From positions 54,403 through 118,402 of IMG/VR virus record IMGVR_UViG_3300028797_000006: a DNA stretch of 64,000 nt. One strand, 5' to 3'. Under the pieces are notes generated by a model. The model did no database searches and had not been told where the DNA came from. It saw only the letters and a program-made list of their open reading frames with translations. Source of the stretch: a virus (taxonomy: Duplodnaviria > Caudoviricetes). Numbering within the stretch: the first letter of the stretch is position 1; the number at the start of each line of letters is the position of its first letter. This document shows positions 3,438-45,978 of the stretch, one piece after another. The position numbers were made by a program, and so were the translations under genes.

Positions 3438-3564
3438 TAATAAATTTCCTTTCTAAAATTACATTATAGTATAAGGGTCGAAATTGATTTAGTCAAAATA
3501 GGATAATTAAAGTTGGATTTGTGATTTAGAAGGATGGGAAGTATATTTTTTTGAGGTAAAATGC

Positions 3565-5340
3565 ATGAATAATTCAAGTTATATTTGAAAAGATTTTACA
3601 AAAGAAGACTTAAAGGCTTGGATTTTAGCGAATACAGACATTAAAGACTGGAATCATTGCCATAATATAGAATTAGATGAACAACAATTAAAATCATTAT
3701 GTAGTGCAATTGGGTGCGTCAGTATAAGTCCAGAGAATATATGGATTTATTTTTCTGATACAGTCAGTCCGCAACAATGATGAATTGGTACTGAAGACGA
3801 TAGCGCGATTACATTAACTTTTCCTGATACTTGTAAAAAAGTTAAAGGAGAATCTTTTAATAACAATTTAAAAAGAGCAAAAACTCGAGGAGTTGAAGAT
3901 AATAGCGAAGAGGGAAATATTTTGATATTAAGAAATATCAGAAGTGTTAGTTCAGCTTCAGATGCTCGAGGATCATATTGTCAGACGCCAAATGAATATA
4001 CTTTTTTAAGTTATATAGGTTTTACTGATAATAATATTTCCGCAACAAGCACGACTAATGGAAGTAAATTATATACAAAATCTTATTTAACAACACTAGG
4101 AAACTACGGAATAAATGGTAAACAATTTAAAATTATTACTTACCTAGATAATCCACCAGTTTATAATGATAATGAAGGATATCATTTTTACTATAAACAA
4201 AATTATGGTAATAATGCAGATACAAATAATTCTAAAAAATATAGAGATTGAGCAATTAATAATACTTCGATGGATATTGTGTGACACAATTTTACGTCTG
4301 GAGGAGGGTCTACCTCATCTCCTACAGTTACTAATGTCACTGAACAAGGTTTTGATCTAATTATTGGTGGTTCAACAACTCATTATATTAAAAATGCTTG
4401 GCAAGATGTATATGTTCTTTGTAGAGAAGCACCTAGCTCATATAATGGATGATGATCAGATAATGGTAATCAACCTCATATAGCGAGCGAAAATGAAAGT
4501 TATGCAGAAATGTTATATAGAACATATGGAACTTATATGGGAATTTTTCATGTTGGACAACTTACAGATAATTGAACAATGCCATTAATTGTTATGACGC
4601 CAGGAAAAGGAGGAGATAACCCTAATGTAGATGCAGACTATATTATTGATTGATATTATCCAACAATGTCCTATAAAAAGAATAGTGATAATACATGATA
4701 TAATATTAATGATAATATTTGATTAAGAAACAAAACAGTAGACTGAAAATCGGAAACACAATGAATAAATTGTCCTCATCAAAATCAAACTGTAGGAATA
4801 GCCCATTATAGTTGAGGATTTGCAGCAAGAAAAAAGAATACAAATAGAAAACCAGTAGAGTATGATACGCATATACTTGGCCCTGATAGTGATTATGCTT
4901 ATAATCGTGGTCGTTGATATGCGGTAGAATTTGATACATCAGGAAGAACTTATTGTATACAGTTAAATGTTGGTTATTGATCAATAAAAGGAATAAGCGA
5001 AAGTATTGCAAGCTCAAAGAGTACTACATTAAATTTTTCTTCTCTGACAGCCTACCATATGAGTTATTGAAATAACACATGACATATGGGTCCTTATAGT
5101 TCACTACAAGCGATAGTTACCGCAGATAAATTATTTCCAGGCATTTTTAAAAATAAGACAGTAATTAATGAAGAATTTTATAAAAAGGGTGCTTTTGATT
5201 GCGACACAGGTTATGACAACGAAACATTGGTAACTTTAGGCATAAGATCAGATGAGAGTGAATATGGAAAATGTCTATTAAAATTTGAAGGGAATAATAA
5301 TAATGGTTATGCAGTTATTTTGATAGATAATAGATCATAA
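3565..5340 (+). CDS. large Asn-rich hypothetical protein, possibly virion-associated (many TGA=Trp, ~591 aa)
   Basis: GAGG RBS then ATG at 3565; fragments 3922..4251 and 5086..5340 are in the same frame, interrupted by TGA; terminator follows. Confidence 0.7.
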
Positions 5341-5844: not shown

Positions 5845-5941
5845 TGGCACGGGTTGTAGGACTCGAACCCACACCTACCGCTTTGGACACGGAATCTTTA
5901 CGGTTTTGAAGACCGCTGTGCTGCCATTACACTAAACCCGC
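5845..5941 (-). tRNA. tRNA-Trp(UCA) opal decoder with ~23-nt expanded variable region
   Basis: GCGGGTT/AACCCGT acceptor, G73, CCA; anticodon arm GCGGT-CT TCA AA-ACCGT; T-arm GTGGG TTCGAGT CCTAC; acceptor resembles the phage's tRNA-Trp(CCA). Confidence 0.9.
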
Positions 5942-5956
5942 ATATTTAACTATTAA

Positions 5957-5985
5957 AATATAGTTAAAGTATTTTTGTTTGTCAA
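5957..5985 (-). promoter_or_regulatory. sigmaA-type promoter for tRNA-Trp(UCA)
   Basis: TTGACA-N17-TATATT immediately upstream of the tRNA. Confidence 0.65.
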
Positions 5986-5986
5986 G

Positions 5987-7717
5987 TTATTTTTCGAATG
6001 ATGATTTTTCTGGGAAATTAGTTTCAAAAAATTTATTTATATTAGCTCTTGTTATATCTTCTTTAATTGAAGAAACTTTTGTATCATTTAAACAGACCAT
6101 TTCTCTGTTCCTTACACAATCTCAAGGAGTATAACTATTTAATTCAAAATAATTAGATTTTTGATAAATTCTAGGTTTCTTTTTACTGACTCCTTGATAT
6201 TTCATACTATCAATAAACAATAAAGATGGAACGACATTCTTTTTATGTCTAAAACGTGAAACTTTCATAGCATCTCAAATTTCATCCATATATTTACTCA
6301 TAAAATCTATTTCATAAGATTTTAATCGTCCATCTGGTAAATGACTATAGTAAATATAGTTACTTCTTTGTCCGCAAATATTTTTTATTAAGAACTTAGT
6401 AGTATTATTTACAACAGAAGATCAAACGCCACTACCATTACCTCAATTTGCAGACATAGTTCCGGTTTCTCCATAATAAAGTGTATCACCTTCAAAGAAC
6501 ATATCCCTTGGAATAGGATTCATAAAATAAAAGTCATCATTACAAACAATAAAATGATTACTTAAATCTTTAATTCTATAATAGAACGTTTCAATAACTA
6601 ATGTACTAAAAGTTGGTAAAAACTCTTCAGGGATGAATTCATCATGATACACAATTCTAAGTTTCGGACATTCTCTATTTAATCATTCAGGTAATTGACT
6701 TTCTCTTTGAACAACTAAAAATACTTTATGTACTCAAGGACAATTTTTTTCAACACATCTAAATCAATATTTAAATACGCCTCAATCACGAGTTCTTTCA
6801 GTACCAAAAGCTTGAATATTAGAAGCATCTTGAATACCTTGATCAATTTCTAATTGTCTATATTTATTAAAATCTGCGCGTCAATTTTCATCATTAGGAT
6901 TAACTCATGGTACAATAATATCAATGTTTTCTCCGGTATTACAAGATTCTAATAAATCAATACGCTCTTCTTCAAACTGATTGAATCTCTCTAAATTAGA
7001 TGGCATATTTACTCCTTGAAAATCTAAAAATTCATTAATAGATAAATTTTTATCATCAATATAAAAATCTGCATTTGGTTTACCAAATCACAATTCGTCA
7101 TACTTAACGCCATTTTTATCTAATCAAGCACGTGTAATAGCATCATATTTAGCTATACGCTCTTCTATTGTTTTACAACTTTTTGCGCCACGAGCAGTAG
7201 AAAGAATAATCTTTCATCCTTGATCATGGAAACGATTAATTTGCTTAATTGTTTCAACAAGAGGATAAGAATTTTCAAAATCTCTATTTTTTGTGAGACA
7301 TAAGGTGTCATCAATATCTATACAAAGTGTGTTATATCTTTCTCTACTTTTAAGATATTCCTTTTCTTTTGTTGTGCTGATATTTGGGGTACGATCTAAA
7401 AAAACTACTTGAGCAAAAGTTTTTATACGATCAATATCATGGTATCCTTTATATTCTGAGCCACAAGCAAATATTTGGACATGTTTCAAATAACTAAATT
7501 TATCTTCTTGTGAGTAAAGAGGCACTACTTCATCGACATATCTAATGCTTAAAAGAATTTGTTTACGTTCTTCATATGAATAAAAAGGAATTTTGCCTTC
7601 AGGATTTACATTTACACCTACAACTAAATAATCGCCTAAAGCTTTAGCTCTGCGCAATAAACTAATATGTCCGTAATGTAGAATATCAAATGTTCCTGTT
7701 GTAAATACCTTTTTCAT
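5987..7717 (-). CDS. three-domain fusion: TagD-like cytidylyltransferase + HAD phosphatase + Stealth-family phosphotransferase (TGA=Trp, 576 aa)
   Basis: GTFDILHYGH; DIDDTL..STARG..FGKP..YIDD; IDIIVP(W)VNPND, P(W)VHKVFLV, HDEFIPEEFLPTFS, NDD; one frame with TGA interruptions. Confidence 0.85.
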
Positions 7718-8061
7718 TATCGACTCCTATGATATCTTTTTGGTTTTCTAGGTTTCTTTTCTTTTCTTTTATACGGGACTCAGCCTTTATTATATCCCGT
7801 TTCAATTGTATTCAACTTCTTAATCCAGTATTCCTCGCGCTCATTAAGTTTTGCTATTGGGCATAACTCAATTACATCTGCGCGAAAATTACGCCAGTCA
7901 GTCTTCCAATCTTTTTGCATATCTTTATTTGGATGATGACCCTTATAAAGTGCATTAATATGCTGTTTACATCTAAAATATACGTTCTGACTTTGCCCAA
8001 CGTATATTTTATTTTTCTTAAGGTTAGTTATTTTATATATTCCAGATGTTGGAAGCGTCAT
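7717..8061 (-). CDS. GIY-YIG nuclease (TGA=Trp)
   Basis: SGIYKI..YVGQS..R..E..GYN; read-through ends at a TAA overlapping the next ATG (TAATG). Confidence 0.85.
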
Positions 8062-38184: not shown

Positions 38185-38279
38185 TGGTACTCCCTGAGGG
38201 ACTCGAACCCCCAACCAGCCAATTATCTGTTGCTATACGGGGTATAAACCCGCCGCTCTACCGGTTGAGCTAAGGGAGT
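38185..38279 (-). tRNA. tRNA-Ile(TAT) with long variable region
   Basis: GCGGG-TT TAT AC-CCCGT plus ~24-nt variable region. Confidence 0.8.
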
Positions 38280-38283
38280 ATAA

Positions 38284-38364
38284 TGGAGACACTGGCAGGA
38301 TTTGCACCTGCGATGATTTACTGAGGTTGCAGCTCAGCCCCTTCGACTACTCGGGCACAGTGCC
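38284..38364 (-). tRNA. tRNA-Cys(GCA)
   Basis: CTGAG-CT GCA AC-CTCAG, U73. Confidence 0.88.
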
Positions 38365-44389: not shown

Positions 44390-44463
44390 TGGCACGGGAG
44401 CTACGATTTGAACGCAGATACACAGTTTTGGAGACTGCAGTCCTACCGTTGGACGACACCCGC
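44390..44463 (-). tRNA. tRNA-Trp(CCA)
   Basis: GCAGT-CT CCA AA-ACTGT. Confidence 0.88.
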
Positions 44464-45896: not shown

Positions 45897-45978
45897 TAGT
45901 CGAGGGAATGGGATTCGAACCCATGGTCACTGATACTGTTTTAATCCGGAAGCTGCCTTACCACTTGGCTATCCCTCG
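45897..45978 (-). ncRNA. tRNA-like RNA or pseudo-tRNA without canonical anticodon arm
   Basis: Intact acceptor, D and T arms; anticodon region unpaired; ends CTA. Confidence 0.6.

Follow-up and report, generated by a model that had tools for sequence, protein, structure and literature searches.

A phage tryptophan-type suppressor tRNA that possibly carries a new type of identity element, a second anticodon-like arm

The closest described counterpart of the tRNA reported here is man-made: in the pseudo-anticodon arm engineered by Mukai 2020, a hairpin at the variable arm of an allo-tRNA chassis copies the cognate anticodon arm and, used with a HisRS fused to an added anticodon-binding domain, raised both the efficiency and the specificity of charging (PMC7590224). 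Hairpins that copy an anticodon loop also recruit synthetases, sometimes in a non-canonical geometry, in the E. coli thrS operator and in the viral tRNA-like structures of TYMV and BMV (PMC9976931; PMC10870377), where they belong to an mRNA or a viral genome and function in regulation or in the charging of 3' ends. The arm that we describe, arm 2 hereafter, is natural, would serve tryptophan, is presumably read by an unmodified host enzyme, and lies inside a decoding tRNA beside a working anticodon. The same anticodon UCA reads UGA and UGG as tryptophan in the tRNA-Trp(UCA) of Mycoplasma and mitochondria, which use genetic code 4; these tRNAs have the ordinary length of ~75 nt, lack a second arm and are charged by their own TrpRS, which accepts U34. 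Code-4 gut phages, in the accessible parts of Borges et al. (10.1101/2021.08.26.457843) and Seki et al. (PMC12636597), likewise encode a tRNA(UCA), with late and structural genes rich in TGA that is read as tryptophan, early genes compatible with the standard code, and a proposed reliance on the host TrpRS. The charging of such stop-reading tRNAs by host synthetases is an open point in the accessible text of Borges et al. (10.1101/2021.08.26.457843). Full-text literature searches yielded no description of a natural tRNA that has a second arm resembling an anticodon arm, and the accessible parts of Borges et al. (10.1101/2021.08.26.457843) and Seki et al. (PMC12636597) make no mention of the extra arm.

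The tRNA belongs to a cattle-gut phage, the DNA of which is present in bovine gut metagenomes as judged by a sequencing-run search. Its IMG/VR record is a complete virus of 118,402 bp with direct terminal repeats, and the stretch analysed here, the window, is the 64,000 nucleotides of its second half (54403-118402 of the record). A blastn comparison of the locus with the GenBank phages gave zero matches, leaving no cultured relative at hand. ARAGORN finds 31 tRNA genes in the window, 30 of which form two arrays at 35.9-38.4 kb and 43.6-46.6 kb; the tRNA(UCA) on the minus strand is the sole solitary tRNA gene, ~30 kb away from both arrays, and the single tca tRNA of the complete 118-kb genome. 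An earlier note on this DNA had thus rightly placed it outside both arrays. The solitary position is not part of the design, however, as most relatives sit in a tRNA array adjoining a tRNA-Trp(CCA). The gene, its parts and the neighbours referred to below are laid out as follows.

5845..5941 (-), whole tRNA gene, 97 nt (ARAGORN; Rfam RF00005; fold)
5900..5916 (-), arm 1, the decoding arm, GCGGU-CUUCAAA-ACCGU, anticodon UCA at 5907-5909 (fold)
5893..5899 (-), linker AAAGAUU, unpaired, between the two arms (fold)
5878..5892 (-), arm 2, the anticodon-arm mimic, CCGU-GUCCAAA-GCGG, CCA at 5884-5886 (MFE fold)
5873..5877 (-), tail UAGGU, from arm 2 to the T stem (NGGU in relatives)
5957..5985 (-), promoter-like TTGACA-17-TATATT (11/12), ending 16 nt upstream of the tRNA (a consensus match only)
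5987..7726 (-), gene of a cytidylyltransferase - HAD-like - Stealth fusion, upstream and co-directional, with 13 in-frame TGA and no TGG
38185..38279 (-), tRNA-Ile(UAU), 95 nt (ARAGORN; its extra hairpin is a manual reading)
44390..44463 (-), ordinary tRNA-Trp(CCA) (ARAGORN)

The tRNA(UCA) gene matches the Rfam tRNA family RF00005 over model positions 1-71 with 57.3 bits (E 6e-12; gathering threshold 29 bits), and the alignment places a 24-nt insertion in its variable region; ARAGORN reads the anticodon as tca and labels the gene "SeC". It has an acceptor stem of 7 bp (5' strand GCGGGUU), a T stem of 5 bp and a D stem of 4 bp with a 7-nt loop, while G73 lies at 5848 and the CCA end is gene-encoded at 5845-5847. 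The MFE fold is a cloverleaf with the additional hairpin CCGU-GUCCAAA-GCGG. The description in the earlier note holds exactly for the insert, for its stem of 4 bp and loop of 7 nt, and for the CCA in the loop centre (5884-5886). C34-C35-A36 is absent from arm 1, which has UCA in its place, and CCA is confined to arm 2, the loop of which, N-U-CCA-A-A, copies the cognate tRNA-Trp anticodon loop CUCCAAA as a pseudo-anticodon arm does. Acceptor pairs 1-5 (G1-U72, C2-G71, G3-C70, G4-C69 and G5-C68) and G73 are identical to those of the phage's own tRNA-Trp(CCA). G73 is a major tRNA-Trp determinant, and A1-U72 and G5-C68 are minor ones (PMC9976931); the window's tRNA(UCA) has G1-U72 and G5-C68, and among 13 relatives (described below) A1-U72 occurs in 12 and G5-C68 in eight. 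As for a promoter of its own, the TTGACA-17-TATATT sequence upstream of the gene is promoter-like, a consensus match only, of a quality for which ~1.9 sites are expected by chance in this region.

The meaning of TGA was read from the fusion gene upstream of the tRNA, which was translated with X at TGA before its Stealth part was set against 120 homologues. Of these, 68 are distant (<=32% identity; background W content 3%), and six of the ten columns with a TGA in the Stealth domain have W in 51-68 of them. Because these six TGA fall on near-invariant W columns, TGA is tryptophan in the source phage. The columns are W and not C, U or S, which makes charging by SerRS unlikely and points, indirectly, to tryptophan as the amino acid that the tRNA(UCA) inserts; together with the Rfam match, the UCA anticodon and the Trp-type G73 and acceptor pairs, this agrees with the earlier identification as an opal-decoding tRNA-Trp(UCA). 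Over 79 large ORFs there are ~190 in-frame TGA against 266 TGG, such that ~4 in 10 tryptophans are written UGA, and many long frames are open only with TGA read through. The spread is uneven, with 35 TGA versus 6 TGG in the 20-30 kb bin, 2 versus 19 in the 40-50 kb bin and zero in-frame TGA in a 1343-aa ORF of the replication-gene block. The source phage thus combines in-frame TGA concentrated in a subset of genes with a tRNA(UCA), as code-4 phages do, and its TGA pattern is the partial recoding that the accessible text of Borges et al. (10.1101/2021.08.26.457843) describes for phages of standard-code hosts; we infer that its host uses the standard code. According to the accessible parts of Borges et al. 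and Seki et al., some of their phages carry a TrpRS and an RF1 of their own, whereas in the complete 118-kb genome of the source phage the TrpRS family (PF00579) is absent by family search and a search of the whole genome found no release-factor gene. The three-part fusion of cytidylyltransferase, HAD-like phosphatase and Stealth CR2/CR4 sugar-phosphate transferase recurs in ~20 homologues of 567-590 aa. On the plus strand, a 609-codon frame (window 3511-5340), open only with 18 TGA read through and without a PHROG match, may be a heavily recoded gene or else no gene at all.

Searching IMG/VR for the exact word of arm 1 plus AAAG brought up eight large phage contigs; a homologue of 93-96 nt is present on seven of them, in five cases adjoining a tRNA-Trp(CCA). 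A scan with the D arm only, blind to both arms, gave 13 distinct long tRNA(UCA). In these 13 relatives, found via the D arm alone, the arm 2 loop U-CCA-A-A is invariant, as is G73, while the arm 2 stems vary (CGGGU/ACCCG, GGGGU/ACCUC, GCGGG/CCCGC, CCUGU/GCAGG and others), with three of the four counted pairs changing on both sides and 96% of the cells paired. Arm 1 likewise has an invariant loop, with both sides altered in four of the five pairs of its stem. Over the entire cloverleaf, 99% of the cells are paired, versus 40-49% with slid partners, and 17 pairs change on both sides. When both loops and the T loop were required, a scan returned 52 distinct sequences. Their D arms and acceptor stems diverge widely, and the loop N-U-CCA-A-A is closed by 42 different stems in arm 2. 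Across this set arm 2 has a mean of 4.6 of its 5 pairs, versus 2.6 with shuffled partners, the linker measures 2-7 nt, and the NGGU tail, 4 nt long in 46 of the 52, has the length of a normal variable loop of 4-5 nt. Finally, a scan blind to arm 2 (arm 1 loop, long variable region and T loop) gave 67 distinct long tRNA(UCA), ten of them true Sec-type and 57 Trp-type, and CCA stands in the arm 2 loop of 55-56 of the 57. Covariation among homologues, which the earlier note had named as a check, is therefore seen in the arm 2 stem, with the CCA loop kept in all 13 relatives and in 55-56 of the 57 Trp-type tRNAs, and by these comparisons arm 2 is under selection, far beyond chance.

The lone exception of the blind scan, on contig L663 (about 2890-2990, +), is a 98-nt Trp-type tRNA(UCA) with acceptor strand AGGGGCU and G73, and its variable region of 28 nt has neither a CCA loop nor a clear hairpin. 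Two further contigs, L160 (2558-2630, +) and L215 (5460-5532, +), encode a 73-nt tRNA(UCA) with the same D arm, a UAGGU variable loop and no second arm; a TrpRS search in these two contigs gave no match, the contigs being fragments just 8-11% complete. The pattern TCTTCAAAA..CTCCAAA returned mainly chance matches and two new relatives only, and a scan of genome contigs returned mainly true tRNA-Sec and chance matches, with a few Trp-type two-arm genes on MAG contigs. Two metatranscriptome runs contain parts of the region, and contigs with intact two-arm relatives occur there; as DNA carry-over is possible, these contigs do not bear on transcription, ends or mature length.

Arm 2 differs in kind from the variable arm of ordinary class II tRNAs (Ser, Leu and bacterial Tyr). 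These likewise have an extra helix between the anticodon stem and the T stem, and in Ser and Tyr tRNAs this variable arm is an identity element. Their arms begin after 1 unpaired nucleotide and end in loops of 3-5 nt without a fixed sequence, whereas the joints of arm 2 measure 4-5 and 3-4 nt and its loop, of 7 nt, resembles that of an anticodon arm. In a set of 12 long tRNA(UCA), ten have an unpaired lead of 4-5 nt, eight a trail of 3-4 nt and ten a loop of 7 nt; for the Ser (48), Leu (29) and Tyr (8) tRNAs of the same loci the commonest values are a lead of 1, a trail of 1-3 and a loop of 4 nt. On the strength of the long joints and the 7-nt loop we reject a class II arm. We likewise reject a decoding loop shaped for the ribosome, as position 32 is G in 26 of the 52 arm 2 loops and in just 7 of 697 real anticodon loops of the same loci. 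Selection thus keeps U33, C34, C35, A36, A37 and A38 but not the 32-38 geometry, which fits a protein reader rather than decoding.

Support for the idea that the second loop tracks the amino acid comes from phages that reassign a different stop codon. A looser scan that asked for UCCAAA together with CUA in arm 1 brought up a single true tRNA (L340:7800-7892), and a scan for CUA or UUA plus CCA with the window's exact D arm gave three chance matches and no tRNA. The L340 tRNA has the D arm, T arm and GGGU tail of the UCA family, its arm 2 is GAGGU-GUCCAAA-GCCUC, and it adjoins a tRNA-Trp(CCA). It is the lone tRNA(CUA) of a phage genome of 146 kb (L343-L350, 93% complete), in which no TrpRS gene was found, and it is of the two-armed Trp type. 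The late genes of this phage are TAG-rich and TGG-poor, one 1822-aa ORF having 30 TAG and 5 TGG, and at four of the five TAG columns of its endolysin the residue is W in 118, 120, 112 and 74 of 120 homologues. Since these columns fall on W, TAG is tryptophan in the 146-kb phage. At 22-35% identity, the proteins of this phage and the source phage were too divergent for TAG to be read by aligning them with each other, and a TAG-rich BspA-like repeat protein gave no reading. This sister tRNA is telling, because in E. coli the amber variant tRNATrp(CUA) escapes TrpRS and receives its amino acid from GlnRS (PMC2965240). The phage recodings reported in the accessible text of Borges et al. (10.1101/2021.08.26.457843) are TAG-to-Gln and TGA-to-Trp only.

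Glutamine and isoleucine provide further cases. We found 39 distinct long tRNA(CUA) with a short second hairpin, the loop of which has CUG or UUG (CUCUGAA, UUCUGAG or CUUUGAA). In one phage with such a tRNA, the TAG codons of a radical-SAM gene line up with three columns where 114-118 of 118 homologues have Q, and with no W column, so that TAG in that phage is Gln. The variable region of the window's tRNA-Ile(UAU) can be drawn as a bulged 5-bp hairpin with the loop CAGAUAA, in which GAU is the ordinary Ile anticodon, whereas the MFE fold of 38185-38279 has no clean 7-nt loop; among the other long phage tRNA-Ile(UAU) in the retrieved loci, seven of nine have CAGAUAA or CAGAUUA and two have UGACAA or UCACAA. 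In every case tested, across three code variants, the second loop matches the ordinary anticodon of the amino acid delivered, which is consistent with a synthetase handle. The proposal of the earlier note that the extra arm could supply the CCA identity element to the host TrpRS fits this comparative match between second loop and sense anticodon. The acceptor-stem and G73 identity elements change along with the second loop, and for this reason the contributions of arm 2 and of the tRNA body are confounded in these comparisons.

We lean, if not strongly, towards a model in which arm 2 is a handle read by the host TrpRS for charging. In this model, the tRNA(UCA) would be the phage's only UGA decoder, a tryptophan-type suppressor tRNA in which arm 1, in the normal place of the anticodon arm, reads UGA, and UGG by wobble, on the ribosome. 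Arm 2 would be a free-jointed copy of the tRNA-Trp anticodon stem-loop at the position of the variable arm, offering C34-C35-A36 to the anticodon-binding domain of the host TrpRS, and the mature tRNA would keep it. The tRNA could then be charged efficiently with tryptophan and without loss to GlnRS, whatever stop anticodon arm 1 carries. Arm 2 might dock directly from the variable-arm side, its long joints allowing a sideways approach, or it might replace arm 1 under the D stem during charging. Such a swap is conceivable because the 4-nt tail has the length of a normal variable loop, so that arm 2, tail and T stem copy the canonical geometry.

For UCA itself the handle may be unneeded. In an E. 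coli TrpRS-tRNA structure the enzyme need not distinguish C34 from U34 (PMC12135181), an opal tRNATrp(UCA) is functional with the TrpRS of B. subtilis (cited in the accessible text of PMC2965240), and in E. coli extract thirteen tRNA(UCA) of phages proved able to insert Trp according to the accessible parts of PMC12636597. For this anticodon arm 2 may therefore not be essential but improve efficiency or ward off GlnRS, and the CUA/Trp sister tRNA is where it should be essential. Counting against the handle are the two 73-nt relatives without arm 2, the L663 tRNA without a CCA loop, and the variable-arm position, which is far from the usual contact between anticodon and enzyme. We are evenly divided on whether the pattern extends to a general phage tRNA architecture that separates a decoding arm (UCA, CUA or UAU) from a free-jointed identity arm (CCA, CUG/UUG or GAU). 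If it does, a stop codon could be assigned to Trp or Gln, and even TAG to Trp, with unmodified host enzymes. The handle would explain how TAG can be Trp despite E. coli tRNATrp(CUA) going to GlnRS, and a natural second anticodon arm, possibly a new type of identity element on a phage suppressor tRNA, would answer how recoded phages obtain charging from their hosts. For genetic-code expansion, it would be a ready-made design in which the decoding anticodon is changed and the identity is kept.

It is unlikely, although worth weighing, that arm 2 serves another protein or purpose than charging by TrpRS, for instance as an anti-determinant against GlnRS or another synthetase, as a substrate or landing site for an enzyme that modifies A36-A37-A38, as a decoy for a host anticodon nuclease, or as a phage-protein site. 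Besides CCA, U33 and A36-A37-A38 are retained in the loop, such that any protein which recognises the anticodon loop of tRNA-Trp might be the partner; help with U34 may be unnecessary for bacterial TrpRS (PMC12135181); and short relatives that lack arm 2 exist. However, a simple steric anti-determinant would not require an invariant CCA, and the loop is CUG/UUG exactly where the stop codon is Gln and CCA where TAG is Trp, which argues for a role in the choice of the amino acid. Nor does a conserved neighbour gene accompany the tRNA, its relatives being members of ordinary tRNA arrays.

A two-headed decoder or conformational switch, in which the tRNA alternately presents UCA or CCA to the ribosome or a competing fold times the change of code, is improbable. 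Removal of either arm leaves the normal 74-nt layout of a tRNA-Trp, with the 4-nt tail as a normal variable loop, and the duplication on which the earlier note had based a competing fold is real, as the 3' strand of arm 1 (ACCGU) pairs 5/5 with GCGGU at the 3' strand of arm 2 in the window. This fold is weaker than the cloverleaf by 5.5 kcal/mol (-22.0 versus -27.5) and its pairing reaches <=2/5 in ten of the 13 relatives, and we reject the folding switch as a conserved feature. Half of the arm 2 loops have G32, which is near-absent from real decoding loops (7/697), and the phage already has a separate tRNA-Trp(CCA). Moreover, a U34 anticodon can read UGG by wobble, as in Mycoplasma and mitochondria.

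Still less probable is the excision of arm 2, or of arm 1 with the linker, during maturation, the gene then being the precursor of a tRNA of ordinary length. The loss of either module yields a canonical tRNA, but there are no group I intron features, Rfam matches tRNA only, and stem covariation with a fixed loop is the behaviour of a functional RNA hairpin. We know of no bacterial pathway for excising a variable-region hairpin, and the RNA-library contigs carry intact two-arm relatives, albeit with possible DNA carry-over. That the gene is a misread selenocysteine or serine-type class II tRNA with an incidental CCA loop is scarcely credible: it shares with bacterial tRNA-Sec the UCA anticodon, G73, the long variable region and the ARAGORN label SeC, and the genome-contig scan did find true bacterial Sec tRNAs with UCCAAA in the variable loop, but its 7/5 acceptor/T layout and 4-bp D stem with a 7-nt loop are not the 8-bp acceptor, 5-bp T and 6-bp D stem with 4-nt loop of Sec, the ten true Sec-type tRNAs of the blind scan look quite different, its TGA columns decode as W and not C, U or S, and CCA is kept in 55-56 of the 57 Trp-type relatives, for which reasons a tRNA-Sec identity is rejected.

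Several tRNAs met in these scans are unusual in their own right. True Sec-type tRNAs, with a long acceptor stem, a 6-bp D stem and a long variable stem, occur on the phage contigs L595, L609, L616, L620, L621, L623, L626, L635 and L640. A tmRNA gene (L005:987-1411, +) lies in a 24-gene phage tRNA array that also holds a two-armed tRNA(UCA). In the window, tRNA-Cys(GCA) (38284-38364, -; 81 nt) and tRNA-Leu(UAA) (45899-45978, -; 80 nt) have lengths unusual for their types. Finally, a 93-nt tRNA called Pro(tgg) (L189:5520-5612, -), with a body that looks like the Gln or Trp type, has a hairpin insertion of ~20 nt in the region of the anticodon loop, possibly an intron.
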